A stretch of 40,521 nt of DNA from an uncultured Deferribacteres bacterium (lineage in GTDB: Bacteria > Zhuqueibacterota > Zhuqueibacteria > Zhuqueibacterales > Geothermadaptataceae): contig CAXHAT010000057.1 of NCBI GenBank assembly GCA_964014485.1, positions 1 to 40,521 on the forward strand, given 5' to 3'. The position numbers were made by a program, and so were the translations under genes. Positions 12-32,776 of this stretch are shown here, piece after piece. How positions within the stretch are numbered: position 1 is the stretch's first letter; every line of letters starts with the position of its first letter. A model generated the notes under the pieces. The model was given only the letters and a program-made list of their open reading frames with translations. It made no database searches and was not told where the DNA came from.

Positions 12-1742
12 GTTTACGGCGAACGGCTCAGCTCGGTTCTCGTGGCAAAGTATCGAAATTTTGCCGCTGAAAAGTTTTCTGGAGAGGCTGAAATCAGTTT
101 GCTCAACGCCGCCGTCATGTTGGAAGGACAGACACATCGTAAGCTCTATTGGGCGGCTTCGGCAAGAATCGCGGATCGCCGTTTTTTGCTCAACACGCTG
201 CAGGAAAAAGGCGACGTTGCCCCGCGCGCTTTTGATTTGCAGGCGCATTTGAATTATAAACTGACGAATCGCCACAATCTGAAATTATTTGCGTTGGAGG
301 GCGAAAACAACGTCTCCGTCGAGCCTTCTCATTCCGACACGCAAGCCCAGGTCGGCTATCTGCAATTCATCTCCTATCACACGGAATTTGAAGGGTTTGA
401 GAAGTTTACGCAGCGCTCCCGGTTGGCTTCCTTCAGCATCGAATCGCGATTGAGGGAAAATATCAAACTCAAAAACCTCGCCGCCTTCGGTCGTTTTTTT
501 GAGCATGAGCATGTGGACAAATCGAGCGAAACGATGCGGTATTTGTTCAACCCGCTTTTTCCTGAGATCGAAACCGAAGAATTGTTGGTCAATGTCGGAC
601 TTGTCCGCAGGAATGACGAATTGCGTGAAAACATGCGGCAGTACCGCGGGCAAATCAAGTGGCAAATTTCGAACGATCTCAAGCTCTCCGCCGGCGGTCA
701 AATCATCACACGCGATTACAAAGACAACCTGATTGAGGAAGAATCTGATGTTCCGGCACAACCGGATTCGATTCGTGTTTATCTCGGCTATTCTTATTTT
801 TATGAAGGCCAGACGAACATCAAAACGCGGCAATCTGCAATCTATCAGCAAATTTCTCTTCAACCAACAAATCGGCTGGAAATTATTGGCGGAGTGCGCT
901 GGAGCCGGTACTTGCCGTCGAAGCAAAATGTATGGCAGCCGCGTGTTAATTTAATCTATCGACGCAACGGCGCGACGCAATTTCGTCTGGCTTGGGGGCG
1001 TTACGCCCAACCGCCGCGTTACCATGAATTTCGCGACACACAGAACAACATTTTTCCAGAGACGCGCGCCCAAATTGCGACACACTACGTGGCGAGCTTA
1101 CAGCATTTCAAGAAAAACGACTCGGAATATCGCGTGCAAGCGTTTTATAAAAACTTGTCGCGAATCATCCCATACAAGCTCGACGATATTTTCTTTCGCT
1201 ACCAGCCGGAGTTGCAGGCGAGCGGGCGAATTTACGGCGGCAGCGCATGGTGGCGCGGCAGACCGATTCCGCGCTTGGAGAGCTGGCTGACTTATACCTG
1301 GATGGATACAAAACAGAATATTTTGGGTGAAGGCGAAAGCCGACTGCCTTCGGATCAGACGCATACGTTTGCCGCCGTTTTGCAGGATTATATGCCTGAA
1401 TTCCCAAACTCACAGGCGCATTTGCGTTTCGTTTTTGGCAGCGGTTATCCTTATACGGCGGTTGGCACAACGGCGATTGAAAACGGCAAGCGCGAGTTGG
1501 TCGAAGGCCGCCGCAACGGTTTTCGCCTGCGATTTTACCGCCGCCTGGACGTTGGCTTCAGCAAGACTTTTCCATTAGCCAATGAACGCAGCGCTCGCGC
1601 CGTTTTCGAAGTTTTCAACATGTTCGATTTTCGCAATTTGTTGACTTATGACGTTTTCATTGACGGGCAGGGAGTCGCGGCTATTACGCCGCTGAACCTC
1701 AGTCGGAGGCTTTTTAATTTGAGGATGGACGTGAAGTTTTAG
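12..1742 (+). CDS. TonB-dependent outer-membrane receptor, 5'-truncated (beta-barrel part)
   Basis: The frame is open upstream of the ORF-track start at 42 and reads VYGERLSSVLVAK, resembling the YGxxxSxV end-of-plug motif. Also amphipathic strands, 'GGVRW...QPRVNLIY', 'YRRLDVGFSK...EVFNMFD' and a C-terminal Phe. Confidence 0.8.
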   Translation, partial: VYGERLSSVLVAKYRNFAAEKFSGEAEISLLNAAVMLEGQTHRKLYWAASARIADRRFLLNTLQEKGDVAPRAFDLQAHLNYKLTNRHNLKLFALEGENNVSVEPSHSDTQAQVGYLQFISYHTEFEGFEKFTQRSRLASFSIESRLRENIKLKNLAAFGRFFEHEHVDKSSETMRYLFNPLFPEIETEELLVNVGLVRRNDELRENMRQYRGQIKWQISNDLKLSAGGQIITRDYKDNLIEEESDVPAQPDSIRVYLGYSYFYEGQTNIKTRQSAIYQQISLQPTNRLEIIGGVRWSRYLPSKQNVWQPRVNLIYRRNGATQFRLAWGRYAQPPRYHEFRDTQNNIFPETRAQIATHYVASLQHFKKNDSEYRVQAFYKNLSRIIPYKLDDIFFRYQPELQASGRIYGGSAWWRGRPIPRLESWLTYTWMDTKQNILGEGESRLPSDQTHTFAAVLQDYMPEFPNSQAHLRFVFGSGYPYTAVGTTAIENGKRELVEGRRNGFRLRFYRRLDVGFSKTFPLANERSARAVFEVFNMFDFRNLLTYDVFIDGQGVAAITPLNLSRRLFNLRMDVKF

Positions 1743-1852
1743 TATCCGCCAGGCTTCGCTAAAACAAAGGAGTTAACCGTGACAAGGTCTACGCGAAAAC
1801 GCCCCGACGACGCCTTTTTAGATTGTTGGAGAATGATTTTGCTGATTGGGGG

Positions 1853-1890
1853 AAATAAAAACGGCGCGCTCTCGCACATGAACGCGCCGC
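1853..1890 (-). terminator. Intrinsic terminator downstream of ftsZ
   Basis: Minus strand reads GCGGCGCGTT-CATGTGCGAG-AGCGCGCCGT followed by TTTTATTT. Confidence 0.6.
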
Positions 1891-2036
1891 ATGGGTCTGC
1901 CAGGATTAAGAAAAAATTGCTTCTTTGAGCGAACAAAACAGATTCGGGGCGTCGCCGGGAGTGTAGGCGGCCGCGCTCACCTCACATCGAACTCGCCGCC
2001 AATATTGACTGCGATTAGCCCGAAACGCCCGCTCGC

Positions 2037-3275
2037 CTACTTTCTCCACCGCTTTCGGATGTAAGCCGGAGATTCCAGATCATCGTCGTCTTGGCTGTAA
2101 AGCGTCTGCTCGATCTCCGAGAGCGTCTCTTTCGCAGCACTTTTATTGCGCGCGCCGTTGCCGTTATACTGGTTATATGAAGGGGGCGAAGTCGCCGGCG
2201 CGCCGTTGCCGTTTGTGGTGCGGCGTTGGTAAGCAGGCACTTCCAAATCGCTCATTTCCGTGTCGATTAAACGCAGATTTTGCAGCGATTTCAGCGCACG
2301 ATCCGCAGGATTTTTATTAAAACCGGTCGCGATGACGGTCACGCGGATTTCTTCTTCCATTTGCGTATCGACGACGGCGCCAAATATAAGGTTGGCTTCT
2401 TCACCGGCGGCTTCGGAAATGACCATGGTCGCATCGTTCACTTCGTGCAGCGCCAGAGAATCGCCGCCCGTAATATTGACGAGCACGCCTTGCGCGCCTT
2501 CGATAGAAATATCGTCCAGCAACGGGCTGGCGATGGCTTTTTGCGCCGCTTCAACTGAGCGCGTCTCGCCGGAAGAAACAGCCGAACCCATCAAAGCGTC
2601 GCCCATTTCACGCATAACCGTGCGGACGTCCGCAAAGTCCAGGTTGATCAAACCGGGGATGCTGATCAAGTCGGAAATCCCTTTGGTTGCGTGCAAAAGC
2701 ACTTCATCCGCGGTGCGAAATGCGGCGGTCAGCGGCGTGCCTTTCGGAACGACGCTCAGAAGGCGCTGATTGGGAATCACGATGAGCGTGTCAACTTGCT
2801 CTTTTAATTCCATGATCCCTTCTTCAGCGCGTCGCAAACGTTTTGGGCCTTCAAAAATGAAAGGTTTGGTGACGATCCCGACTGTTAGCGCGCCTAAATC
2901 TTTGGCGATTTCAGCGACAACCGGCGCTGCGCCCGTGCCGGTTCCGCCGCCCATGCCGCCGGCAATAAAAACCATGTCGCTGTCGCTCAACGACTCAATC
3001 ACAGCTTCACGGTCTTCTTCTACCGCTCTGCGCCCGATTTCCGGGTCAGCGCCGGCGCCCAGACCGCGCGTGATGCCTTTGCCGATTTGCACGCGCCCGG
3101 AAGATTTCGCATGTTCAAGGGCTTGCAGATCGGTGTTAACGCTAATGAATTCCACGCCGCTTAAATTGGCTTCGATCATCCGGTTGACGGCGTTGCAGCC
3201 GCCCCCGCCGACGCCGACGACCTTCATGCGCGCGGAAGGCGAAAAGCTTTCGTCAAAGTTAAATCTCATGTTCAT
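2037..3275 (-). CDS. ftsZ: Cell division GTPase FtsZ
   Basis: KVVGVGGGGCNAVNRM, tubulin signature GGGTGTG, GLINLDFADV and VTVIATG; AGGAG RBS upstream. Confidence 0.99.
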   Translation of the reverse strand: MNMRFNFDESFSPSARMKVVGVGGGGCNAVNRMIEANLSGVEFISVNTDLQALEHAKSSGRVQIGKGITRGLGAGADPEIGRRAVEEDREAVIESLSDSDMVFIAGGMGGGTGTGAAPVVAEIAKDLGALTVGIVTKPFIFEGPKRLRRAEEGIMELKEQVDTLIVIPNQRLLSVVPKGTPLTAAFRTADEVLLHATKGISDLISIPGLINLDFADVRTVMREMGDALMGSAVSSGETRSVEAAQKAIASPLLDDISIEGAQGVLVNITGGDSLALHEVNDATMVISEAAGEEANLIFGAVVDTQMEEEIRVTVIATGFNKNPADRALKSLQNLRLIDTEMSDLEVPAYQRRTTNGNGAPATSPPSYNQYNGNGARNKSAAKETLSEIEQTLYSQDDDDLESPAYIRKRWRK

Positions 3276-3290
3276 GGCAGACTCCTAAAA

Positions 3291-3316
3291 TAGGTTATTA
3301 GACTTTAGGCTGTTAG
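3291..3316. repeat. Degenerate 7/8-mer tandem array (TAGGTTAT-TAGACTT-TAGGCTGT-TAG)
   Basis: Close to the reverse complement of the array at 37571-37604. Confidence 0.55.
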
Positions 3317-3385
3317 TAATAATTTGTGCGTGAGAACCATCATTTGAAAATTGGAAATTGTCATTTGCAGTTTATCAGGCACGGG

Positions 3386-4624
3386 TCAGATTCTGCTCGT
3401 GCCAAACCAACGTTTCATCCGCTCAATGATTTTTTCGAAAACGTGCGATTCGCTGTCTCCGAACGGGCCGTCGATGATGTGGCGATTGGCCTTGCCGTAC
3501 AGCACGAGACCGACGCCCGTCGCATGCAAGGGCAGCTTGACGTCATCACTGACCGTTTTCATCCCGGACGGCCTGCCGAGCTTCACCGGCATCTCCAGAA
3601 TCTCTTCCGCCAGCTCAATTGTGCCTGGCAGCATCGAGCCGCCGCCTGTTAAAACCGCTCCCGCCGTCATCAAATGTGCGTGGTCAGATTTGCGAATTTC
3701 ATTTTGTGCAAGCATGAGAATTTCTTCCATCCGCGGCTGAATAATGTCCACCAACAAACCTTTGGAAACTTTGCGCGGGGCGCGACCGCCGACGCCGGGA
3801 ACTTCGACCAAATCTTCCTTGTCCGTTTCGCCGCGAACCGTTTTGCCGAAGTTGATTTTGATCGCTTCCGCGCTCTCAACCGGCGTTCTTAAACCGTGCG
3901 CAATGTCGTTGGTGACATTTTTTCCGCCGAGGCTGACAATCGCGGTGTGGCGAATGCTGCCTTCATAAAACATGGCGATATCCGTCGTTCCTCCGCCGAA
4001 ATCGAGCACGCAGACGCCGAGGTCTTTTTCATCAGGCGTTAGCACGGCGTAACTGCTGGCGAGGGGTTCGAGCACCAGGTCCATCACCGTCATGCCTGCG
4101 CCTTCAATGCTGCGCCAAATGTTTTGCGCCGCCGTCACAGCACAAGTAACGATGTGGACTTCCGCCTCAAGCCGAACGCCCGACATGCCGACAGGATCGG
4201 TGATGCTGCGCTGGTCATCGACGATAAATTCTTGCGGTAAAATATGGATGATTTCACGGTCAAACGGCAGCGCCACAGCTTTTGCAGCGTCGATGACGCG
4301 CTTCTTGTCTTCCGGAGAAATGATGTGATTGTCTCCAGCCACGGCAACCACGCCGCGCCCGTTGACGCTGCGAATGTGATCGCCCGCGATGCCCGCGTAA
4401 ACAGATTCCACTTCTACGCCGGCCATTTGCTCGGCCTCTTCCCGCGCCTTGATGATCGCCTGAATCGTTTTATCTAAATTGATCACTACGCCGCGACGCA
4501 ATCCTTCCGACTGCGCCGTCCCGACGCCAATAATTTTCAACACATCGTTTTCATCGATTTCGGCAATGAGCGCGCAAATTTTGGTTGTGCCGATATCGAG
4601 CGCGCAAATATAGTCGTTTGCCAT
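3386..4624 (-). CDS. ftsA: Cell division protein FtsA
   Basis: ALDIGTTKI, LDFGGGTTDIA and VLTGGGS actin-fold motifs; directly upstream of ftsZ. Confidence 0.99.
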   Translation of the reverse strand: MANDYICALDIGTTKICALIAEIDENDVLKIIGVGTAQSEGLRRGVVINLDKTIQAIIKAREEAEQMAGVEVESVYAGIAGDHIRSVNGRGVVAVAGDNHIISPEDKKRVIDAAKAVALPFDREIIHILPQEFIVDDQRSITDPVGMSGVRLEAEVHIVTCAVTAAQNIWRSIEGAGMTVMDLVLEPLASSYAVLTPDEKDLGVCVLDFGGGTTDIAMFYEGSIRHTAIVSLGGKNVTNDIAHGLRTPVESAEAIKINFGKTVRGETDKEDLVEVPGVGGRAPRKVSKGLLVDIIQPRMEEILMLAQNEIRKSDHAHLMTAGAVLTGGGSMLPGTIELAEEILEMPVKLGRPSGMKTVSDDVKLPLHATGVGLVLYGKANRHIIDGPFGDSESHVFEKIIERMKRWFGTSRI

Positions 4625-4643
4625 GCCACCGCCTCCTTGTGGG

Positions 4644-4719
4644 TGGTTTATTGGATTGTTGGAATAATGGATTGGTGGATTTTTTCATTCATCCAGTATT
4701 CCAACAATCCATTATTCCA
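4644..4719. repeat. Inverted array of 8-mer units (5x TGG(A)nnnn then 4x nnnnTCCA)
   Basis: TGGTTTAT TGGATTGT TGGAATAA TGGATTGG TGGATTTT ... TTCATCCA GTATTCCA ACAATCCA TTATTCCA. Confidence 0.75.
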
Positions 4720-4723
4720 TTTT

Positions 4724-5467
4724 TCAGGTCTTTCTTTTTAACACAATTTGTTCATCGAAACGAAGATCCAGTCGCGCGACGTTCTCCAGCTTTTTTGTGG
4801 TCTGAAAATGTCGCCAGGCGGCGCCGAGCTTTTTGCATTTTTTTACCCATCCGCCGCCGCCGAGAATGACCGGCAGTTGTTCCTCGGTCGTCAAAAACTG
4901 GACGCCGTTGGTTTCCGTGTAAGTCGCTTCGGAAATCAAGTGATAAACAAAAGAATTCGCTTTTTGAAGATCGCCAAGAAAACCCGCGAGCCTTGCAACA
5001 TTTTCATTGTCGACGACTTCGCCCGGCAAGTGCTGTTTTAAGCGCAGGCCAACGATCACCGGGTAATCCATCCCGACTTTTGGCTTAAATCTCGGCAGCA
5101 AAACGCCTTCTCGATCCAGCCCCCAAAGCCCGTTGTCCAAAAGAACCGCCACGGGTTCACGTTCCTGAACGCGCACGCGAATGCTGGACGGAAACGTGCG
5201 CGCAACTTCGACCTTGGCGATTTCCGGCAGTTCGGCAATGCGCTCTTCGATGCGTTTCACTTCGGTATTCCAGATTGACCCGACCGTGTCGACGCGCGCC
5301 AATTCCAGAAGCTCCGCTTCTTCCAGTAAATTGTTGCCGGACACCATGATTTTGCGCACGGTAAACGCATGATTGTCCTGAATCCACACGCTCAAGTGCA
5401 AAAGCAGGAGAATCAAGCTCGTCGCAAAAAAAACGTACTTCCCAGCGTTTCTAACCTTTTCTGCCAT
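4724..5467 (-). CDS. ftsQ: Cell division protein FtsQ/DivIB
   Basis: Single N-terminal TM, POTRA-like 'VRKIMVSGN...ARTFPSSIRVRVQEREPVA' and C-terminal 'LDLRFDEQIV'; upstream of ftsA. Confidence 0.92.
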   Translation of the reverse strand: MAEKVRNAGKYVFFATSLILLLLHLSVWIQDNHAFTVRKIMVSGNNLLEEAELLELARVDTVGSIWNTEVKRIEERIAELPEIAKVEVARTFPSSIRVRVQEREPVAVLLDNGLWGLDREGVLLPRFKPKVGMDYPVIVGLRLKQHLPGEVVDNENVARLAGFLGDLQKANSFVYHLISEATYTETNGVQFLTTEEQLPVILGGGGWVKKCKKLGAAWRHFQTTKKLENVARLDLRFDEQIVLKRKT

Positions 5468-5476
5468 AATTTTTAT

Positions 5477-5563
5477 TGGATTTGTGCAGTGTTGGAATGC
5501 TGGAGTATTGGAGCAAACTTGAAGTGCTGCAAAATTCCATTAATCCAACAATCTATTATTCCA
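5477..5563. repeat. Inverted array of 8-mer units (second copy)
   Basis: TGGATTTG TGCAGTGT TGGAATGC TGGAGTAT TGGAGCAA ... AAATTCCA TTAATCCA ACAATCTA TTATTCCA. Confidence 0.7.
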
Positions 5564-5615
5564 GTCTTACCCTTTTCGTCTCGTTCTCAAGTGAAAATTG
5601 ATAACATGCTAAAAT

Positions 5616-5734
5616 CGGAGTGCAAAGCTTGCTTTGCCTTTCATTCGGCTCAAACGGACAAGCGGAGCAAGTTCAAAACGAACGCGATACTCAAAAAACT
5701 CGCGACAAAACCGCAAGGCAAGCCTTGCACTCCG
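5616..5734. repeat. REP doublet (REPIN/MITE-like) with GGAGTGC-tagged hairpin arms
   Basis: Left arm CGGAGTGCAAAGCTTGCTTTGC, right arm GCAAGGCAAGCCTTGCACTCCG. The same arms recur at 13791-13925. Confidence 0.8.
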
Positions 5735-5744
5735 TAATAATCCA

Positions 5745-6917
5745 TCAATTGGTGGTTGCGCTGAGTTTAAGCGCAGCTTGCTTGACTTTCTCCAAATTCA
5801 GAACGCGCGCCAGTCCGCGTTCGTCGCCTTGCTGGTAGATATTCAGCAAAAGCCCGACGCCGAACATGTTTATTATCAAGGCGGAGCCGCCGTAACTGAC
5901 GAACGGCATCGGGATGCCCGTCGTCGGGATCAGATGCAGCACAACGGCCATGTTCATAAACGCGTAAAGTCCAATCGAAATCGTTACGCCAAGCGCGAGC
6001 AAGCGCCCTTCATTATCCGGTGCGGACATTGCGATTCTAAATCCGCGAAAAACGATCACCAGAAACAACCCGATGACCAACAGCGTGCCGAGCAAACCAA
6101 GCTCTTCGCCAATAATAGAAAAAATAAAATCCGTGAACGGATCGGGGAGCCAATGAAGCTTTTGCTTGCTCTCGCCGAGCCCCACGCCGAACAATCCGCC
6201 GTTGCCAAGACTGATGAGCGACTGTTTGACCTGCCAGCCAATTTGCGATTCATCGCCAAACGCTTCAATAAATCCCATCAATCGATTGCGCTGGTAAGGC
6301 ACGCTCATAAGCATGAAAAAAACCGCTGAAATACCGGCGCCGAACAAGGCAAACAAGTGCCAAATCCGCGCACCCGCGATAAAAAGCATGCTGATGATGA
6401 TCAGAAAAATCATGATCGACGTTCCGGCGTCGGGCTGCAGCAAAACGGCCGTGCAGACAATTCCCGTCAGAATCAATTGCGGCAAGACGCCGTCGGTGAA
6501 CGAGCGAACTTCAACGCTTTTTAGCGTCAGGATTCTGGCGAACATCAGAATGAGCGCAATCTTGGCCAGTTCGGACGGTTGAAAACGAAAACCCATGACC
6601 GAGAGCCACCGGCGCGTGCTGCGCACCGTCCACTCTTCCGGAGCAAACATGAGCACGAGCAACAGAGTCAGTGCGCCCCAAAAAATCCAGGGCGCGTAGT
6701 CCAGAAAAACGTGATAGTCGATGCGCATGGCAAAGTAGAGCACGACCGCGGCGATCAAAATCCGAAAAACCTGCCTTTTCAAGAAAAACGTGGCGTCGCC
6801 GTAATTGTCGAAAGCCTTTGCCGAACTGGCGGTATATATAAAAGTCAGGCTCAAAGCCAGCAAAACCGCGATGGCGAGCAGCAAACTATAGTCGATTTTC
6901 TTTTTTTGTTCCGCCAT
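5745..6917 (-). CDS. ftsW: SEDS peptidoglycan glycosyltransferase FtsW
   Basis: RRWL...FQPSELAK, LLQPDAGT, GLGESKQKL..LP...TDFIFSIIGEELG and PTTGIPMPFVSYGGS; dcw context. Confidence 0.96.
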   Translation of the reverse strand: MAEQKKKIDYSLLLAIAVLLALSLTFIYTASSAKAFDNYGDATFFLKRQVFRILIAAVVLYFAMRIDYHVFLDYAPWIFWGALTLLLVLMFAPEEWTVRSTRRWLSVMGFRFQPSELAKIALILMFARILTLKSVEVRSFTDGVLPQLILTGIVCTAVLLQPDAGTSIMIFLIIISMLFIAGARIWHLFALFGAGISAVFFMLMSVPYQRNRLMGFIEAFGDESQIGWQVKQSLISLGNGGLFGVGLGESKQKLHWLPDPFTDFIFSIIGEELGLLGTLLVIGLFLVIVFRGFRIAMSAPDNEGRLLALGVTISIGLYAFMNMAVVLHLIPTTGIPMPFVSYGGSALIINMFGVGLLLNIYQQGDERGLARVLNLEKVKQAALKLSATTN

Positions 6918-6918
6918 G

Positions 6919-8004
6919 CTATCTGATTTTAAAAGTTGCTAAGGTCAGCAATGCGAACAGAATGCCGATAATCCAGAATCGAATCACAACCTTGGTTTCC
7001 GGCCAGCCCTTTAGTTCAAAATGGTGATGAATCGGAGCCATCAAAAACACGCGCTTGCCGCGACGCTTGTAGCTCGTCACTTGAATAATCACTGACAGCG
7101 TCTCCGCGACGAACACGGCGCCGATGATGGGCAAGAGCAGTTCTTTTTTGACCAAAATGGCCAGAGTCGCCAGCGCGCCGCCAAGCGCCAATGAACCGGT
7201 GTCGCCCATAAAAACTTCCGCCGGGTTGCTGTTGAACCAAAGGAATCCAAGAGCCGCGCCGATCAAAGCGGCGCAATAGACGGTCAATTCTCCCGCGCCT
7301 GGCAGGTAAATAATGTTCAAATAATCGCTGAACTGAACGTGCCCGGAGAAGTAGCAGATAGCGGCAAAAGCAAACGCCGCGATAGCAACGAGACCAATCG
7401 CCAAACCGTCGAGGCCGTCGGTCAGGTTCACCCCGTTTGAGGTCGCCATAATGACGAAAATCACCATCGGGACATACAACAGGCCGAAATCAATTTCATA
7501 GTTTTTGAAAAACGGTACGGTCGTCAGCGTCGAGATGTCCTTAAAATCCGGCGCGAGCAAAATACTGACACCGACGATAATCCCCAGCAGGCACTGGCCC
7601 GCGAGCTTGTATCGTCCGATTAAACCGTTCGGGTACTTTTTGATCACCTTCAGGTAATCGTCGAGGAAACCGACGACGCCCATCCAAACCGTCGCGATCA
7701 AAATCAGAATGACGTAGGTGTTGACGACTTTTGCCCAAAGCAGCGTCGGGATTAGCACAGCGCCGAGTACGATCAATCCGCCCATCGTCGGCGTGCCGCG
7801 TTTTTTCTGGTGGTGCTCCGGCCCTTCCTCTCGAATTTCTTCACCGATTTGCATTTTGCGCAGCCAGTTGATAATGCGCGGTCCAATGAAAAAACTGATG
7901 AACAACGCCGTCACCGCCGCCCCCGCTGCGCGAAAGGAAATGTACTGGAACAGGTTAAAACCTGAGACAAATTCGTTTAACGGGTAGAGTAAGTAGTAAA
8001 ACAT
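6919..8004 (-). CDS. mraY: Phospho-N-acetylmuramoyl-pentapeptide transferase MraY
   Basis: GTPTMGG, GFLDDY, SNGVNLTDGLDGLA, FMGDTGSLALG and MAPIHHHFE. Confidence 0.99.
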   Translation of the reverse strand: MFYYLLYPLNEFVSGFNLFQYISFRAAGAAVTALFISFFIGPRIINWLRKMQIGEEIREEGPEHHQKKRGTPTMGGLIVLGAVLIPTLLWAKVVNTYVILILIATVWMGVVGFLDDYLKVIKKYPNGLIGRYKLAGQCLLGIIVGVSILLAPDFKDISTLTTVPFFKNYEIDFGLLYVPMVIFVIMATSNGVNLTDGLDGLAIGLVAIAAFAFAAICYFSGHVQFSDYLNIIYLPGAGELTVYCAALIGAALGFLWFNSNPAEVFMGDTGSLALGGALATLAILVKKELLLPIIGAVFVAETLSVIIQVTSYKRRGKRVFLMAPIHHHFELKGWPETKVVIRFWIIGILFALLTLATFKIR

Positions 8005-8079
8005 TGATTCTTGATTAAATCAGGCAATTGTTTTGGTGCGGCGCAGGGCGCCGTCATTCTGCAAATTCAAAATCCAGGC

Positions 8080-8213
8080 GGAGTGTGATGATTCATCACC
8101 GCCTTCTCGTTCCCAAACTCCGGTTTGGGAATGCCATTGTTCTCGAAATTTTACTTCGCTTCAAAACTTGGTAACGAGCTGCAACTGGCGACTCTGAAGC
8201 GTCGCACTCCTAC
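8080..8213. repeat. Composite REP cluster: GGAGTG-tagged hairpins flanking a nested CTCGTTCCCA-type palindromic element
   Basis: GGAGT+GTGATGA-T-TCATCAC (8080-8099); CTCGTTCCCAAACTCCGGTTTGGGAA ... CTTGGTAACGAG (8106-8178); minus strand GTAGGAGT+GCGAC-GCTTCAGA-GTCGC (8213-8188). Confidence 0.6.
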
Positions 8214-8215
8214 GA

Positions 8216-9595
8216 TTAAGCAAAAGATTTCTTAAACTGCTCGATAACTTCTTCCATTTTCAGGCCGCGCGAGCCTTTCAGGAGAATCGTGTCTCCGGGC
8301 TTACTTTTTCGGTTCAGGCCCTCTGCGATTTCCGATTTATCGGCAAAAAGGCTCACATTTTCCAGGCCGGGCTTCATCGCTTCTCGCATCAAGTCGCCGT
8401 AAATCAAAACCTCAGCGAAGCCTTTTGACGCCGCGTGCTCAATGATTGCGTCGTGATCTTCGATTTCGGTCTCACCCAACTCTCGCATATCGCCGAGCAC
8501 GACGAACCGGTTTTCTTTTCCGGGCAGCGCCGACAGAAAATCGATGGCCGCACGCATGGATTCCGGGTTGGCGTTGTATGTATCGTCGAAAATGCGCCTG
8601 CCGCCAATTTCGAGACGCGTCATTCTGCCGCCGACGGTTTTAGCTTCCCGTAAACCATCGATAATTTTCTCGTTCGCTACGCCGCAAGCCACGCCCATTG
8701 CAATCGCCGCCAAGGCGTTTTGCGCATTGTGCAAGCCCGGCACGTCGAGCTCAATTTTTGAACCTTGCCAGTTAAAAGACGCGCAGCCGTTTTTATTCAA
8801 GGTCAAATTCTCGCCGCTGACGTAAGCCTGTTCGTTGAATGAAAAAGTCATTTTTTCCTTAACGCCGGCATCTTTTGCAGCTTGTCGGACGTTCGGATCA
8901 TCGAGATTGATCAAAGCCAGACCCGTCTCCGCCACAGCGTCAAACAACTCCTGTTTGGCACGACGCACGCCGTGAATGTCGCCAAGAAATTGCGTGTGCG
9001 CTTGCGCGACATTTGTGATTAAACCGATTTCCGGTTCAGCAATTTCACAGAGCGCCGCAATCTCGCCTGCGTGATTCATGCCCATTTCCAGCATGGCGAT
9101 TTCCGTTTCTTTCGGCATATCGAGCAGCGTCATCGGCAGACCGATGTGGTTGTTCAAATTTCCCTGCGTTTTGTGGGTTTTAAATGACGTTTCCAAAATA
9201 CTCGCCGCGAATTCCTTCGTCGTTGTTTTGCCGTTCGAGCCAGTGAGCGCCGCCACGCTCGGATTGCAATGTTTCCGATATGCCCAAGCCAGTTTTTGCA
9301 GAGCGGCCAGCGTGTCTTCGACGATGACAAAAGCGCCGACTTGCGGCTTTGAGCCTAGCGTTTTCCACCATCGCCGATCAACGATAATGGCGCCTGCTTT
9401 TGTAACAAGATTTTCGATGACAAACTTGTGCGCGTCATGAATTTCGCCGCGCAGCGCGACAAACACGTCTTCTTCTTCAACCAGTCGTGAGTCGATTCTT
9501 ACCTTTCCACCCGGAAGCTGCAATCTGTTCGCGTCGCCATGAATCTCCGCATCGATTCGCCAGTTCTTCAGCGCTTCAGCCAGTGACCAATCCAT
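8216..9595 (-). CDS. murF: UDP-N-acetylmuramoyl-tripeptide--D-alanyl-D-alanine ligase MurF
   Basis: IDSR, TGSNGKTTTKE, GNLNNHIGLP, EMGMNHAGEI, DDTYNANPESM and LLKGSRG. Start moved from 9655 to the in-frame ATG at 9595, 1 nt after the ftsI stop. Confidence 0.96.
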   Translation of the reverse strand: MDWSLAEALKNWRIDAEIHGDANRLQLPGGKVRIDSRLVEEEDVFVALRGEIHDAHKFVIENLVTKAGAIIVDRRWWKTLGSKPQVGAFVIVEDTLAALQKLAWAYRKHCNPSVAALTGSNGKTTTKEFAASILETSFKTHKTQGNLNNHIGLPMTLLDMPKETEIAMLEMGMNHAGEIAALCEIAEPEIGLITNVAQAHTQFLGDIHGVRRAKQELFDAVAETGLALINLDDPNVRQAAKDAGVKEKMTFSFNEQAYVSGENLTLNKNGCASFNWQGSKIELDVPGLHNAQNALAAIAMGVACGVANEKIIDGLREAKTVGGRMTRLEIGGRRIFDDTYNANPESMRAAIDFLSALPGKENRFVVLGDMRELGETEIEDHDAIIEHAASKGFAEVLIYGDLMREAMKPGLENVSLFADKSEIAEGLNRKSKPGDTILLKGSRGLKMEEVIEQFKKSFA

Positions 9596-9596
9596 G

Positions 9597-11780
9597 CTAT
9601 TCCAAACTTTTTGCCGCTCGTCGCCAGAGCGTATTTTCGGGCAACGTGCATTCAACGACGCAGCGAATTCCGGCGCGCACGCGGCTGCCTGCCGCCGGTT
9701 TTTGTTTTACCACGTTTCCGCTGCCGTAAACGACCGGTTCAAGTCCGTGAATCGTGAGCTTGTTCAGCGCCTCGCGCATGGAAAGTCCGACGACTTTTGG
9801 CATGATTAAAGAGCCGTCGTTTTCCGCAACTTCAAATAATTCGATGCTAACGCTGTCGCCGGGCTGCGTTGCCTTTCCCGGTGCTGGGAATTGCGATGCA
9901 ATAAAACTCCCCGAGCCCTGCGTGTGAACGTCCAGACCCAGCCCTTCCAAAACGGTAAGGCCTGCAAAAACGGAACGCTTGGTCACGTCCGGCATTTTCA
10001 AAGAGCCTTCAGCAACAACGATTTTTGTCCTGGATTTCTTTGGCGTTTTCGGGGCGTTCTTTTGGGTGTAAAATTTCTTTTCCCGCAGGCGGATTCGTTC
10101 CGCAATATTCTTAAAAACTTCCGCCGAAAACTTGCCCCATTGAAATTGACGGCTGGTTTCGAGTTTGACGTAGATCAAATATTCCGGTTTTTGCACCGGG
10201 TAAAATCCGGCAAAATTCGAGACAAATTCCGTCGCTGAATACCCGCGGCCGTTCGGCAGCGCTTTTTGCGCCGTCCCGGTTTTTCCCGCGACATTTAAAT
10301 TGGGCAATTTCGCTGGTTCTCCGGTGCCTTCTTCCACCACACGTTGCAGCAGTTTTTTCAAAAGATCCGCCGTCGATTTCGAAAGGATGCGCTTAGGCGG
10401 CGGAGAATCTTCGGCGAGAGTCAATTTGCCGTCTTCACCTTGCGTCCCGAGCAGAATCCTGGGCTTGAGCAACAAACCGCCGTTTGCAATCGCCGCATAG
10501 GCAAGCGCCATTTGCAGCGCCGTGACGGAAACTTCCTGACCAATCGACATCGAAGCCTGCGAATAATCCGACCATTGCGACGGCGATTTCAGCATGCCTC
10601 CCGCTTCGCCGGGCAGATCGACCAACGAGCGCCCGCCAAAGCCAAAACTGCTCGCAGCTTGAAAAAAACGCTCTTTGCCTAAAACCTCGCTCAATTTGGC
10701 CGTGCCGATGTTCGAAGAATACGAAAGCGCCTGACCGACCTGAAGCCAGCCGCGCGGCTTCGTGTCCCGGATTTTCCGCCCGTTTTTCACGTACAGCCCG
10801 TTTTCCGCAAAAATTTTGTCCGCCGGTTTTCTCAGCTTATTTTCAAAAAGCGCGGAATACGTCACAACTTTGAAGGTCGAACCCGGCTCATAAATGTCAG
10901 TTACGGCGCGATTTCTCCGGGCGGCGGCGGAGTACTTTGCCGGTGCGTTCGGATTATAGGAAGGCTCGTTCGCCATCGCCAGAATCTCGCCGTTTTGCGG
11001 ATTCATTACGATGACTGAACCGTTGCGCGCTCCGAATCTCCTGAGCGCCGCACGCAGTTCTTCCGTAACAATCGTTTGGACAATGTAGTCAATCGTCAAG
11101 ACGACTGATGCGCCGTCCGTCGGATGCAAATTTTCGATGATATTTTCCGGCACTGCACGCCCGCGCCCGTCGCGTTGAATCACCAGCTTGCCGGCTTCCC
11201 CAGACAATAAATCGTTGAATTGCAGCTCGGCGCCTTCGATGCCTTTGTTGTCCGCATCCGTGAAGCCCAAGATGTGGCCGGCAATTTCATGGTGCGGATA
11301 AATGCGTCGTGCGTCTTTTTCAACAAGAATTCCCGGCAATTCGAGGGCCGCGACCTTGTCTCCAACTTCGACGTCCACCCTTCTCCGAAGCCAAACGAAA
11401 TTGCTTTTGACTTTCTGGATGCGTCGACGCAGGCCGGATGCATCCATTTTGAGAAGCCTGGCAAGGGACTTGGCATAATTGCTCGCCGTCCCTTCCATTT
11501 GCCGCTTATCGAGCCCAATAGAATAGCACGTTTCGTTGAGAATGAGGTATTCGTTGTTGCGGTCGTAAATTTTACCCCGCCTGGCTTCTTGCGGAATCTC
11601 TACGACATATTGCTTGTTCGCCATCCGGCCGTATTTTCCGCGCTCCCAAAGTTGGATGTACAACAATCGCAAAACCACAGCGCCTGCGAACAAAAAGAAA
11701 AAGCCCGCCGCGATGTAAACGCGAACATCGTTTTTTCCCGTCGGTTGCTTTTTTGTACGTTTTTTGGCTTTGCGAAGCAT
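9597..11780 (-). CDS. ftsI: Class B penicillin-binding protein FtsI with two C-terminal PASTA domains
   Basis: N-terminal TM, RRGKIYDRN, SxxK (PGSTFK), SxN (SSN), KTGTAQ, and PASTA-like MPDVTK.. and MPKVVGLSMREAL. Confidence 0.95.
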   Translation of the reverse strand: MLRKAKKRTKKQPTGKNDVRVYIAAGFFFLFAGAVVLRLLYIQLWERGKYGRMANKQYVVEIPQEARRGKIYDRNNEYLILNETCYSIGLDKRQMEGTASNYAKSLARLLKMDASGLRRRIQKVKSNFVWLRRRVDVEVGDKVAALELPGILVEKDARRIYPHHEIAGHILGFTDADNKGIEGAELQFNDLLSGEAGKLVIQRDGRGRAVPENIIENLHPTDGASVVLTIDYIVQTIVTEELRAALRRFGARNGSVIVMNPQNGEILAMANEPSYNPNAPAKYSAAARRNRAVTDIYEPGSTFKVVTYSALFENKLRKPADKIFAENGLYVKNGRKIRDTKPRGWLQVGQALSYSSNIGTAKLSEVLGKERFFQAASSFGFGGRSLVDLPGEAGGMLKSPSQWSDYSQASMSIGQEVSVTALQMALAYAAIANGGLLLKPRILLGTQGEDGKLTLAEDSPPPKRILSKSTADLLKKLLQRVVEEGTGEPAKLPNLNVAGKTGTAQKALPNGRGYSATEFVSNFAGFYPVQKPEYLIYVKLETSRQFQWGKFSAEVFKNIAERIRLREKKFYTQKNAPKTPKKSRTKIVVAEGSLKMPDVTKRSVFAGLTVLEGLGLDVHTQGSGSFIASQFPAPGKATQPGDSVSIELFEVAENDGSLIMPKVVGLSMREALNKLTIHGLEPVVYGSGNVVKQKPAAGSRVRAGIRCVVECTLPENTLWRRAAKSLE

Positions 11781-11786
11781 TTGCGG

Positions 11787-12155
11787 CTATTCGTCTCCCT
11801 GGATGTAAACGGTCTGAGGTTTTAGCTCGATAAAGCCGAAACGCTCGCTGGCGACTTTGTGAATGCGGCGATAGCTGCTCAGCGATTCCGCCTGTCCGCG
11901 AAGGCGTTCATTTTCTTCAACCAAGAGTTTGCGAACTTTTTGATATTCAACGATTTCGCGCTCAATTTCCCGGATTTTAATTCGCTCCCAGACATAGAAA
12001 ACAGCCAGGCCGGAGAGAAGAATGAACAGTACACAAACCGGCAGCCAAAGAATGCCGTAGTCGGGTTGCAAAGCGACGCCGCCCTTGGCAGCTTTGCGTC
12101 GCCGAACCATTGTTTTTTGCTTAGACGAGTTTTTTGATCGCGCGGAGCTTGGCAC
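11787..12155 (-). CDS. ftsL: Cell division protein FtsL-like (alternative start ATG at 12110)
   Basis: Small bitopic protein with a TM followed by a coiled coil 'ENERLRGQAESLSSYRRIHKVA'; lies between rsmH and ftsI. Confidence 0.8.
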   Translation of the reverse strand: MPSSARSKNSSKQKTMVRRRKAAKGGVALQPDYGILWLPVCVLFILLSGLAVFYVWERIKIREIEREIVEYQKVRKLLVEENERLRGQAESLSSYRRIHKVASERFGFIELKPQTVYIQGDE

Positions 12156-13074
12156 TTCGTGATCTCGGGTTTTGTTGAACTTCCTGCGGCGACGGCGTCA
12201 CAACACGCCTGGTTAAAATTTCGCCTTCCTGGATATGATTACACGTACAAATCGGGGCGTCCTGCGGACAAACGCAGGTTCTGGCTTTTTCTCGAAAAAA
12301 GTTTTTGACCAGCCGATCTTCCAGCGAATGATAGGAAATGATCACCAATTTGCCGTCGGGTTTTAAGAGCGAAAAAGCGTTCGGCAAAAAACGCTGCAAC
12401 TCGCCCAACTCGTCGTTCACAGCGATGCGCAAAGCCTGAAAAACGCGCGCCAACGTTTTCACGCGCCATTTGCCCGGCGCTTCGCGACCAACAATTTCCG
12501 CCAGCCGCTCCGTTGTTTGAATTGGGCTCGTGCGCTGCGCCTGCAAAATCCGCTTAGCCAGTAAACGGCTTCGTCGTTCTTCACCAAATTTCCAGAGAAT
12601 CGACGCCAGCTCTTGCTCATCGACGCGACTCAGAAGTTCGGCGGCGGACTCGCCTGCTTTGCGATTCATTCGCAAATCGAGCGGGCCGCTTTGCTGAAAA
12701 CTGAAGCCGCGCTCCGGCGCGTTTATCTGGTGCGACGAGACGCCGAGATCAGCCAAAACGCCGTCGACGCCATTCCTTACTATGCTTTGCGTGGCAGTGA
12801 TAAGATTTGAAAATCGATCATGTATCGCCGTAAACCGAGAATCGTCTTCCAGCAAGTGCGATGCATGCGCTATCGCCGCCGGGTCGGCGTCAATGCCAAA
12901 AACGCGCGCACCGTCTTCCAATTTTCGAAGCAGCGCCCGCGCATGCCCGCCTCCGCCGAGCGTTGCGTCGATATAATCGCCTGCATGTGCAGCGATTAAA
13001 AACGACAACGTCTCAGAGACCATCACGGGTTCATGATAGGGATGCTCTGGTGAAGAATCATGCTGAAAAACCAA
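12121..13074 (-). CDS. rsmH: 16S rRNA m4C1402 methyltransferase RsmH (MraW); start uncertain
   Basis: HEPVM, DATLGGGGHA, DLGVSSHQ, RGFSF..GPLDLRM, ISYHSLEDRLVK and NPRSRSAKLR. Confidence 0.98.
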   Translation of the reverse strand: MVFQHDSSPEHPYHEPVMVSETLSFLIAAHAGDYIDATLGGGGHARALLRKLEDGARVFGIDADPAAIAHASHLLEDDSRFTAIHDRFSNLITATQSIVRNGVDGVLADLGVSSHQINAPERGFSFQQSGPLDLRMNRKAGESAAELLSRVDEQELASILWKFGEERRSRLLAKRILQAQRTSPIQTTERLAEIVGREAPGKWRVKTLARVFQALRIAVNDELGELQRFLPNAFSLLKPDGKLVIISYHSLEDRLVKNFFREKARTCVCPQDAPICTCNHIQEGEILTRRVVTPSPQEVQQNPRSRSAKLRAIKKLV

Positions 13075-13186
13075 CTCTCAAATCCCTTTAACGCCGCATC
13101 CTTGCGGCGATTTTTATTCACGTCAACTACGGCCAGACCATTAGGAGGGAACGTGCGGGAGGTAATCAGGCAAATTAACGACGGCG

Positions 13187-13693
13187 CTACGTACCGGCTT
13201 CGGAAGCTCCTTTCAATTCGGCGCGCTTGGCGATTTGGGCCGTCTGGAACGCCTTGAATGATTCAGGATTCCAGATGTCGAAAAAATTTCCCATCCCGAC
13301 AAATCGTAATTCCTTTTGAATGCTCGCGTCTTTCAAAAGATCAGCGGGAAAATTGATGCGGCCTTGTCCGTCCAACTTAATTTGATGCGCGTTAGCCGTC
13401 AAAAGCATGATCGCGAAAGTGTCGTCTGACGTTTCGCCTTCTTCATACTCAGTAAGTTTTCCCAAAATTGTCTCGTTATAATAACTCGTGGGATAAGCGC
13501 GGATGCAAGAGAGTTTGTCAAAGGGCATCAAGCGCAATGTGATGCTATTCACGCCATACATGTCCAGCACCTCGCGAATGCGGACAGGCGTGCTGCCTCT
13601 GCCTTTCGCGTCGAGCACGAAATCGAAGCAGCCCGTGAATTTCAAAATGCGATCGCTGGCTTGCGGCAGTGTATTCGCCACACCATTCACCAC
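13187..13693 (-). CDS. mraZ: Transcriptional regulator MraZ (true start possibly TTG at 13645)
   Basis: Two DxxGR repeats (LDAKGR, LDGQGRI..P) and 'FVGMGNFFDIWN'; first gene of the dcw cluster. Confidence 0.88.
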   Translation of the reverse strand: MVNGVANTLPQASDRILKFTGCFDFVLDAKGRGSTPVRIREVLDMYGVNSITLRLMPFDKLSCIRAYPTSYYNETILGKLTEYEEGETSDDTFAIMLLTANAHQIKLDGQGRINFPADLLKDASIQKELRFVGMGNFFDIWNPESFKAFQTAQIAKRAELKGASEAGT

Positions 13694-13764
13694 TTTTTGA
13701 CAATTTTACTCCACTTTGCCCCACTTTTTTGCACTATATACCACATAATCCCCCGAAATGCAAC
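13690..13764 (-). promoter_or_regulatory. MraZ-box array over the dcw promoter
   Basis: Minus-strand GTGG-like boxes with 10-nt period (plus strand CCAC 13711, CCAC 13721, GCAC 13731, CCAC 13741, plus CCAC 13690). They overlap a candidate TTGCAT-N17-TATATA promoter. Confidence 0.7.
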
Positions 13765-13790
13765 TTTTTTTTCGCGATTTTTTTTTAAGT

Positions 13791-13925
13791 CAAGGAGTGC
13801 AAGGCTTGCCTTGCTTTTCCATTACAGGCATTATTAAAAAGTCGTCTTTCAAAAACATCCTGCCGAAATTCGCTGCGCTGGATCGTTTGGGCGTGTAGCT
13901 CGCAAAGCAAGCTTTGCACTCCTTG
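13791..13925. repeat. REP doublet (REPIN/MITE-like), second copy in opposite orientation
   Basis: CAAGGAGTGCAAGGCTTGCCTTGC ... GCAAAGCAAGCTTTGCACTCCTTG, a 22/24 inverted repeat. Confidence 0.8.
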
Positions 13926-14170
13926 GTCGCCGAATCTTCTCGTAAAAATTCCCTTGCATTTGCGCACCTCTAAGGTTAATTATTTCCGCTTTTTTTGAAC
14001 CAACAATAGTCGCACTCAATCTGACCCAGAGACGATTTGAACGGAATCTCGCGAAAAGAAAGAGCGTTTTGGTCGCCCGGCCCTAAAAACAGCTCTTTAA
14101 TTGTCCCTTCTTTGGAACTCAGTAATTCCAATTCACCCCCTTATCTTTTAACCCAACAGGAGAGATTTCT

Positions 14171-23656: not shown

Positions 23657-23712
23657 CAGATTGATGGATTAATGAATCGTTAAGCCCATTATTCCAACAA
23701 TCCGCGGCTCCA
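23657..23712. repeat. Inverted array of 8-mer units (third, more degenerate copy)
   Basis: CAGATTGA TGGATTAA TGAATCGT TAAGCCCA TTATTCCA ACAATCCG CGGCTCCA. Confidence 0.6.
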
Positions 23713-23725
23713 AAATGACCGGCGC

Positions 23726-31677: not shown

Positions 31678-31721
31678 AGTGATTAGTGATTAGTGATTAG
31701 TGATTAGTGATTAGTGATTAG
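31678..31721. repeat. Perfect heptamer tandem repeat (AGTGATT)x6
   Basis: Six exact units plus AG; another unit at 31745 and an inverted ATCACTA at 31763. Confidence 0.9.
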
Positions 31722-31778
31722 AATATCGAAAGCGCTCATTAGACAGTGATTACGAGATTTTCATCACTAAACACCGCC

Positions 31779-32155: not shown

Positions 32156-32776
32156 CTAAATATGCTCTCGAATCAACGCGACGACTTTGCCTTGAATCGA
32201 CCAGCCCTCAGTAATTGGAATGTTGCCGTACAGCGTATTTTCCGGCTTTAAATATTTTAGACGCTCATTTTTGACCACGAATCGTTTCACCGTCGCTTCT
32301 TCTTCGCTCAGCGCCACAACAATGTCGCCGTTGTCGGCATGGTTCGTCGACCGGACGATGACCAAATCTCCTTCAAGAATTCCGGCGTCGATCATACTGT
32401 CTCCCTGAACGCGGAGAGCATAGTGTTTTGCAGCGGAATCCGTCAGATATTCCGGCACCGGAACATAGCGTTCTATATTCTGCTCCGCCGTAATCGGCGT
32501 TCCCGCAGCGACCAAGCCAACCAAAGGCACGCCTCGACTTTTCATATCGCCGTCTTCCTCCACGCCTTGTAAAATCGTAATGCCGCGAGCGCCGTTTGCA
32601 GCGCGCCGGATAAAGCCCTTTTTCTCCAAAGCTTCCAGGTGCTTGTAAACTGCATTCTTCGATTTAAAGCCGAATTCGTTTGCCAATTCCTGCATTGTAG
32701 GGGGATACCCAATGTCTCGTTTGATTTGGATGATTCGGTCCAAGATTTCTTTTTGTTTCTGAGTTATTTTTCGCAT
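32156..32776 (-). CDS. lexA: SOS repressor LexA
   Basis: T.KQ.EIL...GYPPT..EL...FG.KS..AV..HL.ALEKKG HTH, Ala-Gly cleavage site VAAG, catalytic GDSM and TVKR. Confidence 0.97.
   Translation of the reverse strand: MRKITQKQKEILDRIIQIKRDIGYPPTMQELANEFGFKSKNAVYKHLEALEKKGFIRRAANGARGITILQGVEEDGDMKSRGVPLVGLVAAGTPITAEQNIERYVPVPEYLTDSAAKHYALRVQGDSMIDAGILEGDLVIVRSTNHADNGDIVVALSEEEATVKRFVVKNERLKYLKPENTLYGNIPITEGWSIQGKVVALIREHI

Follow-up and report, generated by a model that had tools for sequence, protein, structure and literature searches.

The stretch of DNA analysed here, a 40,521-nucleotide window (contig CAXHAT010000057.1), carries a division and cell wall (dcw) gene cluster that lacks much of its usual peptidoglycan precursor series. 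Genes were called by scanning a total of 35 open reading frames (ORFs) from the window against Pfam and NCBIfam families, using the equivalog and subfamily cut-offs of NCBIfam. Read along the minus strand from position 13693 to 2037, ten genes were found in the order mraZ–rsmH–ftsL–ftsI–murF–mraY–ftsW–ftsQ–ftsA–ftsZ. The cluster was colinear with a dcw cluster, lying on one strand with mraZ–rsmH at one end and ftsQ–ftsA–ftsZ at the other, but of the Mur series (murE, murF, murD, and murC plus mraY and murG) only murF and mraY were kept, making it a reduced variant. Canonical clusters, as seen in most of 80 comparison loci (for example, L005, L007, L008, and L010), shared its flanking genes, strand, and relative order of the genes present; unlike them, the window was without murE, murD, murG, and murC, and ftsI adjoined murF. 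Neither the family scans of the 35 ORFs nor tblastn with the gene set of L005 detected a homologue of murE, murD, murG, murC, or murB in the 40.5-kb window. No ddl was found there by the family scans, the L005 query set being without Ddl. These results bear out the gene content and order, with six genes missing, that an earlier note had read from this DNA.

The genes on either side of the missing ones were closely joined. At the usual murE position, ftsI (9597..11780) and murF (8216..9595) were separated by a 1-nt gap read as TAG-C-ATG (9590–9600), and at the usual murD position the same TAG-C-ATG joint linked mraY (6919..8004) to ftsW (5745..6917; joint at 6912–6925). An identical 9-mer, ATAGCATGG (stop TAG, C, start ATG, and G), stood at both joints. 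The usual site of murG and murC (and of murB and ddl) was occupied by a 277-nt ftsW–ftsQ spacer (5468..5744) consisting largely of repeats. Both 1-nt gaps and the repeat-filled spacer agreed with the earlier note, which made no mention of a 211-nt non-coding spacer with hairpins between murF and mraY (8005..8215).

The four wall enzymes of the cluster were examined for conserved columns, defined as those with 97% or more conservation in the orthologues that the fetched loci encode. MurF (459 aa from the ATG at 9595) scored 432 bits with TIGR01143 (cut-off 288.6) and only 95 bits with the murE model, carried the P-loop GSNGKT119–124, and kept 20 of 20 conserved columns. MraY scored 413.7 bits with TIGR00445 (cut-off 192), carried DD115–116, D268, and HHH326–328, and kept 61 of 63 columns, and FtsW scored 354.1 bits with TIGR02614 (cut-off 337.5) and kept all 18. 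FtsI, a class B penicillin-binding protein (PBP) with a transpeptidase domain (246 bits), a PBP_dimer domain, and two C-terminal PASTA domains, had the motifs STFK301, SSN355, and KTG500 and kept 21 of 21 columns. The catalytic motifs were present in FtsI, MurF, and MraY, and all four enzymes were intact, as had been claimed. MurF, MraY, FtsW, and FtsI look functional by these measures and, since they are intact, the cell probably still makes ordinary peptidoglycan.

As a separate observation, the best NCBIfam match of the septal PBP FtsI was SpoVD (460.8 bits, under the cut-off), and FtsI of L002 and L005 scored likewise. Two PASTA domains on a septal PBP are unusual for a presumably diderm bacterium of the superphylum Fibrobacteres–Chlorobi–Bacteroidetes (FCB).

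The remaining genes, all on the same strand, were assigned as follows. mraZ (13187..13693; 168 aa, GTG start) matched PF02381 at 8.7e-14 and MraZ models of NCBIfam at up to 9e-20 but under their cut-offs. rsmH (mraW; 12121..13074), encoding the 16S rRNA m4C1402 methyltransferase, reached 334 bits with TIGR00006 (cut-off 154.3). ftsL (11787..12155) was assigned by its position together with weak matches to TIGR02209 (34.5 bits, cut-off 42.45) and the DivIC Pfam family (4e-6). At the other end, ftsQ (4724..5467) carried a POTRA_1 (FtsQ-type) domain (2.6e-15), ftsA (3386..4624) scored 425 bits with TIGR01174 (cut-off 175.85), and ftsZ (2037..3275) scored 431 bits with TIGR00065 (cut-off 295.2).

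Rarity of the arrangement and recurrence in relatives

The 80 comparison loci were obtained from one MraY scan of species-representative genomes, and their gene order was determined by tblastn. Among the 72 loci that extended 1300 nt or more past mraY, the gene after mraY was murD in 59 and ftsW in 5 (L009, L032, L037, L041, and L061), while 8 had another gene or none within 400 nt. On the upstream side, murE preceded murF in 66 of 71 assessable loci, and ftsI lay directly before murF in a single one, L002. The cluster was otherwise full in three of the loci without murD between mraY and ftsW (L032, L037, and L061, from an alphaproteobacterium, a deltaproteobacterium, and Thermomonas, respectively), and a Spirochaeta metagenome-assembled genome (MAG), L041, had murF–mraY–ftsW without murD. 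Two FCB-type MAGs departed further from the canonical order: in L013 (Kapaibacterium), mraY stood alone between rmlC and pgi (10001–11131), and in L019, murE–murF–mraY was followed by ispG and mscS (7338–13997).

According to Leonard 2022, genes of the dcw cluster have been lost or delocalised over its history, sub-clusters occur in many phyla, and murB and ddlB typically lie outside the cluster in the FBC (FCB) superphylum. Since a location of murB and ddl outside the cluster is the FCB norm, the unusual absences among the six that the earlier note listed are those of murE, murD, murG, and murC.

Two of the comparison loci resembled the window in gene arrangement. L002 carried rsmH–ftsL–ftsI–murF–mraY–ftsW up to the contig end; its MraY was the most similar to that of the window (70% identity), but its FtsI and MurF were only 38% and 39% identical. 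L009, from a MAG labelled candidate division KSB1, carried murF–mraY–ftsW–murG–ftsQ–ftsA–ftsZ, which makes it an intermediate in which murD and murC were lost and murG was kept. A first ORF pass had returned the L009 murG as a 117-aa C-terminal relic; this was rejected, as the gene contains a run of N, a scaffold gap, at about 3190–3290 and both its N-terminal motif GGTGGH and its C-terminal part are present.

A large protein collection contained closer homologues than the species representatives did, with best identities of up to 68% for FtsW, 58% for FtsI, and 51% for MurF. The nearest named homologues were labelled candidate division KSB1 (FtsW 67%, MurF 47%), Calditrichota (FtsW 61%, FtsI 52%), and Candidatus (Ca.) Zhuqueibacterota (FtsW 46%). 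MurF identities to the comparison loci (35–51%) were too flat for placing the window among them, and an ESM Atlas search with FtsA returned generic FtsA clusters only, with no usable taxonomy.

As a proxy for gene adjacency in annotated MAGs, we used the sequential NCBI accession numbers of their proteins, for those of the closest named homologues that had such numbers. The MurF–FtsW accession difference was 2 in six of seven pairs (MCA97338.., MCB95017.., MDZ73015.., MDZ73110.., MGH74964.., and MFQ57080..), the sole exception being MDZ7292109 versus MDZ7292742. FtsI and MurF differed by 1 in four of seven pairs (MGH74964.., MFQ56290.., KAA36614.., and MBN20081..) and by 2 in the other three, all from one KSB1 species (the MDZ72921.., MDZ73015.., and MDZ73110.. 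blocks); the latter value points to one gene between the two in that species, presumably murE. FtsI and FtsW differed by 3 in both available pairs, KAA36121.. (on a 445-kb contig; labelled Calditrichota) and MFZ55160.. (labelled Ca. Zhuqueibacterota). The mixture of differences of 1, 2, and 3 argues that the numbering carries information.

The comparison of dcw synteny with relatives that the earlier note had proposed shows the core recurring in independent MAGs labelled KSB1, Ca. Zhuqueibacterota, and Calditrichota. The ftsI–murF–mraY–ftsW core appears, partly on the strength of accession numbering, to be widespread in this group, together with variants that keep murE or murG. Together, these results are best explained if the pruned cluster represents a genuine, old, and lineage-wide dcw reduction in a bacterium close to KSB1 (Ca. 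Zhuqueibacterota) of the FCB superphylum. Reduced dcw clusters are already known, and this arrangement would be a further variant.

The fate of the missing ligases

Published annotation tables of related genomes bear on the genes missing from the window. Supplementary file 7 of Li et al. 2022 (PeerJ, PMC9012183) reports KofamScan (mapper mode) assignments of KEGG Orthology (KO) identifiers for 44 MAGs filed as KSB1, at least 50% complete and divided into four clades (I–IV) of 6, 11, 12, and 15 MAGs; the counts below are from that file. murD (9 MAGs), murE (10), and murI (4) were rare; mraY (39), murG (38), ddl (38), the murC KO (36), murF (33), mpl (40), and ldcA (40) were common. The presence of murG, ddl, and the murC KO in 36–38 of the 44 MAGs indicates that these genes lie outside the cluster in the related genomes. 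The three families missing together, MurI, MurD, and MurE, are unrelated to one another but belong to one sub-pathway, whereas the D-Ala branch (alr, ddl, and murF) and the lipid steps were kept.

The same file shows a second pattern. murA and murB were called in 25 and 24 of the 44 MAGs, respectively, with neither in any of the 6 clade I MAGs, with 3 and 2 of the 12 in clade III, and with murA in 10 of 11 in clade II. amgK was present in 6/6, 0/11, 10/12, and 8/15 MAGs of clades I–IV. amgK thus occurs where murA and murB are nearly absent, a coherent pattern which argues that the table reflects biology. dat was called in 5/6, 5/11, 0/12, and 0/15 MAGs of clades I–IV, and since clade IV lacked both dat and murI (0/15 each), no known source of D-Glu is annotated there. 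dapF and lysA were present in most MAGs, and all 6 MAGs of clade I carried the ddl KO four times.

KSB1 has since been renamed Zhuqueibacterota, and the earlier clade II has become the sister phylum JdFR-76 (iMeta 2024 letter, PMC11683472). With clade II left out of the PMC9012183 table, the counts were 5/33 for murD, 7/33 for murE, 31/33 for mpl, and 29/33 for mraY. Table S9 of PMC11683472 covers 75 MAGs and records gains and losses at chosen nodes only. In it, murU, ddl, amgK, murF, mraY, murG, and mpl carry orthogroup numbers from 229 to 1256, murB, murA, and murE carry 2929 to 3118, and murI is 5491, low numbers being taken to mark larger groups on the assumption of usual numbering practice; murA and murB are also recorded as lost at a later node. 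K01925 (murD), K01924 (murC), COG0769, COG0770, COG0771, and COG0773 are not in the Table S9 file. The COG identifiers of MurC to MurF, MurB, and MurI are absent from the PMC9012183 supplements, so that a COG cross-check of the tables was not available. The string 'mur' occurs 0 times in the main text of either paper. Overall, the seldom detection of murD and murE, set against mraY in 39 of 44 MAGs and a near-universal mpl, favours a bypass over relocation for the MurD and MurE steps.

One such bypass exists in the peptidoglycan recycling pathway, in which Mpl ligates L-Ala-gamma-D-Glu-meso-diaminopimelate (mDAP) to UDP-N-acetylmuramic acid (UDP-MurNAc) and can circumvent MurC, MurD, and MurE in one step. 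Since the cluster in the window keeps genes acting after the Mpl product (the murG that is also needed must be elsewhere), we consider a wall built on a salvaged stem peptide to be the likeliest reading. Specifically, we suggest, as a proposal still short of probable, that murG, ddl, and a murC/mpl-type ligase are encoded elsewhere, that MurD and MurE have been lost, and that an Mpl-type ligase attaches a ready-made tripeptide; this proposal draws on the annotation tables of others and on no gene of the window. Somewhat more tentative is the wider suggestion that most of KSB1/Ca. Zhuqueibacterota, including this organism, gave up de novo synthesis of the stem tripeptide (no MurD, MurE, or glutamate racemase), that some orders are also without MurA and MurB, that walls are made via Mpl from scavenged L-Ala-D-Glu-mDAP, and that the pruned dcw cluster is a mark of obligate dependence on wall debris from other bacteria.

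murB and ddl already lay outside the cluster in the FCB ancestor. Under this proposal, the genome would carry murG, ddl, and a gene for the murC/mpl-type ligase at other sites, as relatives suggest. MurD (the D-Glu step), MurE (the mDAP step), and MurI, the supplier of D-Glu, would most likely have been lost. An Mpl-type ligase would join ready-made L-Ala-gamma-D-Glu-mDAP, derived from wall debris and trimmed by LdcA, to UDP-MurNAc and so replace MurD and MurE; in relatives without murA and murB, UDP-MurNAc would come from salvaged MurNAc via AmgK and MurU. The enzymes of the cluster would act from UDP-MurNAc-tripeptide onward, with MurF adding D-Ala-D-Ala, MraY making lipid I, and FtsW and FtsI polymerising and cross-linking the product at the septum.

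Known systems offer partial precedents. Gram-negative bacteria such as E. coli and Pseudomonas recycle peptidoglycan through AmpG/Opp import, LdcA, Mpl, and the AmgK–MurU MurNAc bypass. Tannerella forsythia, also of the FCB superphylum, is without murA and murB and depends on scavenged MurNAc but keeps MurC to MurF. The proposed mechanism resembles the Gram-negative loop in that an Mpl product would feed MurF and MraY, and KOs for mpl, ldcA, and amgK are common across the MAGs filed as KSB1 (PMC9012183); it differs in that the Gram-negative loop is an accessory one running beside MurC, MurD, and MurE, whereas salvage would here be the sole route, and none of its components is encoded in the window. 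Tannerella provides a same-superphylum precedent for the use of scavenged wall fragments, matched in the PMC9012183 table by the murA/murB-minus, amgK-plus KSB1 clades I and III, but the loss proposed here would extend to the peptide-stem ligases MurD and MurE.

Several observations weigh against a salvaged stem peptide. The family scans found no Mpl, LdcA, AmgK, or transporter gene in the window. Other phyla include known cases of a reduced dcw cluster whose mur genes are all dispersed to other sites. The prior is low, the literature searched showing no free-living bacteria without MurD and MurE. Both published tables are threshold-based and patchy and rest on MAGs that are at least 50% complete, so that missed calls are possible, and absence from Table S9 is weak evidence. 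In clade III, murE and murI are called without murD in four MAGs, and in clade IV, three MAGs with a murD call have neither murE nor murF (PMC9012183). A MurC, called in 36 of 44 MAGs, would have no obvious use in cells lacking MurD, except if its KO was assigned a second time to an Mpl-type protein. The KSB1 placement itself rests on submitter labels and identities of 37–67% and not on a marker-gene tree. We found no paper describing MurD/MurE-less, Mpl-dependent bacteria or reporting amgK, murU, and mpl in this sense in MAG studies, and none on this pruned cluster or on a KSB1 scarcity of murD, murE, and murI alongside near-universal mpl, which is not proof that none exists.

The strongest rival, which we regard as somewhat unlikely, is plain relocation, in which murE, murD, murG, murC, murB, and ddl are all canonical and elsewhere, the cluster has merely broken up into sub-clusters, and the textbook pathway operates. 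Borrelia burgdorferi has kept murF–mraY–ftsW–divIB–ftsA–ftsZ with its remaining mur genes scattered, and in spirochaetes the other mur genes are known to be located elsewhere; the murF–mraY–ftsW order of L041, without murD, is of this spirochaete type (murF–mraY–ftsW–ftsQ/divIB–ftsA–ftsZ). Other lineages also lack cluster genes, as the direct mraY–ftsW junctions of L032, L037, L041, and L061, the lone mraY of L013, and the end of the L019 cluster after mraY illustrate, and the dcw history of delocalisation in many phyla (Leonard 2022) and the frequent murG, ddl, and murC calls in the KSB1 MAGs point the same way. Moreover, MurF and MraY require the product of MurC, MurD, and MurE. However, relocated murD and murE genes should be detected about as often as mraY (39/44) but were seen in 9/44 and 10/44 MAGs, with murI in 4/44, and neither murD nor its COG is in Table S9 (PMC11683472). 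The spirochaetes differ from the present case in the same respect, the tables of the related phylum mostly failing to detect murD and murE at all (PMC9012183), and the lineages are unrelated. The earlier note had posed the choice as relocation or a non-canonical route; this was the right choice to pose, and the evidence suggests a mix of the two, with murG, ddl, and a murC-type gene elsewhere in relatives and murD and murE mostly undetected.

A non-orthologous or diverged replacement seems improbable. According to this explanation, D-Glu and mDAP are still added, either stepwise or as a cell-made peptide, by enzymes that standard models miss, such as diverged Mur ligases or extra Ddl-like ATP-grasp ligases, with an Mpl attaching a cell-made peptide. 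The fourfold ddl KO of all 6 clade I MAGs, the dapF and lysA calls in most MAGs (by which mDAP is made), dat in 5 of 6 clade I MAGs, and the retained murC KO (PMC9012183) are consistent with it, and the patchiness of the murD and murE calls hints that scores lie near the threshold in some MAGs. On the other side, no candidate enzyme emerged, the family scans revealed no extra ligase gene in or beside the window cluster, and Table S9 has no fallback annotation as COG0771 or COG0769 (PMC11683472).

An assembly or binning artefact, in which collapsed or chimeric joins deleted the genes, and a pseudomurein-like system are both effectively excluded. The former is highly improbable even though the contig is of metagenome type, the FtsI of the window is recorded on 3 contigs, of which the longest has 60,370 bases, and two spacers contain repeats: both tight joints have the form stop-C-start, in frame and within coding sequence that is unique, G+C is even across the region (0.51–0.54; about 50% in the window) with no compositional break across the cluster, and the same adjacencies recur in L002, L009, and no fewer than 10 other blocks of NCBI accessions, which come from different MAGs. 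The same joints in independent assemblies argue against mis-assembly, in line with the view of the earlier note that a single one was unlikely. A pseudomurein-like or other non-murein wall, made by divergent Mur ligases together with a transferase resembling MraY, is scarcely credible: it was raised only as a loose analogy in the earlier note, and although the clusters of Methanobacteriales and Methanopyrales likewise combine Mur-ligase-fold enzymes with an MraY-family transferase, the window encodes ordinary bacterial murein machinery, with MraY at 413.7 bits on the bacterial model versus 134.7 on the archaeal one (cut-off 450), a MurF above its bacterial cut-off and at 34–77 bits on the pMurC, pMurD1, pMurD2, and pMurE models (cut-offs 550–610), an FtsI with canonical PBP motifs and PASTA domains, and bacterial FtsW, FtsQ, FtsA, and FtsZ.

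If the stem tripeptide is indeed salvaged through Mpl, the consequences would be considerable. MurD and MurE, both antibiotic targets, are regarded as essential in all walled bacteria, and a free-living lineage without them would change that view. The sugar auxotrophy of the Tannerella type would be joined by one for the peptide stem, and the recycling of dead bacterial walls would be linked to a phylum widespread in sediment and sludge. Dependence on wall debris could also help to explain the lack of cultured members in the phylum and would suggest a cultivation recipe supplying muropeptides, tripeptide, or MurNAc. Even under plain relocation, the cluster would represent an unusually deep and stable pruning of a highly conserved cluster, with intermediates surviving in relatives.

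Spacers, repeats, and neighbouring genes

The ftsW–ftsQ spacer consisted mostly of two kinds of repeat, a palindromic element of about 120 nt (5616–5734) and an inverted pair of TGGAWT arrays (5477–5563), and this spacer with its palindromic element gave an RNA fold z of -4.16. The palindromic element, about 120–135 nt long, occurred in two copies, the second lying upstream of mraZ (13791..13925, no strand assigned) and recognised by terminal-repeat matches. The termini of the element are 21 nt long, read GGAGTGCAAGGCTTGCCTTGC or a variant with 2 mismatches, and are each a hairpin in themselves; the terminal repeats gave 4 matches versus 0 in 100 shuffles. By its appearance, the element looks like a repetitive extragenic palindromic (REP) sequence or a miniature inverted-repeat transposable element (MITE).

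The TGGAWTNN arrays, with an 8-nt period, formed inverted pairs upstream of ftsQ and upstream of ftsA (4644–4719), the latter within the 99-nt ftsQ–ftsA spacer (4625..4723), and a partial copy lay at 23663–23717. Nine array matches were found versus 0.03 expected, and the motif was found in none of the 80 fetched loci. The arrays could be binding sites for a regulator. As to their nature, the spacer elements may be either regulatory sites or palindromic repeats of a mobile kind.

The murF–mraY spacer opened with a GGAGTGC hairpin motif resembling the palindromic element, contained an 11-bp hairpin, and had an RNA fold z of -2.61. L002 likewise had a gap between murF and mraY, of about 150 nt, whereas in L009 the two genes overlapped.

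A decayed gene in the spacers was considered and rejected, as six intergenic stretches searched by tblastn with the L005 gene set yielded only noise, even with E values of up to 50 allowed. The best relic candidate, a MurF-like 47-aa stretch with 26% identity and two stops, lay within the repeated element and was likewise rejected. A sigma-70 promoter scan of 1700–14300 yielded 5 sites versus 7.5 expected, an uninformative result as the scan does not cover FCB promoters; terminator-like sites numbered 38 versus 22.3 expected. Rfam and tRNA scans of the window returned nothing.

Elsewhere in the window, the family scans identified a TonB-dependent receptor fragment, two FG-GAP/type IX secretion system (T9SS) proteins, an ADOP permease, Xth, a cyclophilin, Eda, and Usp, as well as TonB, proline dehydrogenase, LexA, a RecQ–ComF fusion, DprA, RNase Z, and Wzz. 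Within 34319–37374, the fusion protein (671 aa) joins a RecQ-family helicase to a ComF-type phosphoribosyltransferase domain, and its gene runs into the start of dprA. Upstream, lexA occupies 32156–32776. A tandem 7-mer, AGTGATT, is repeated in about seven copies at 31678–31726.

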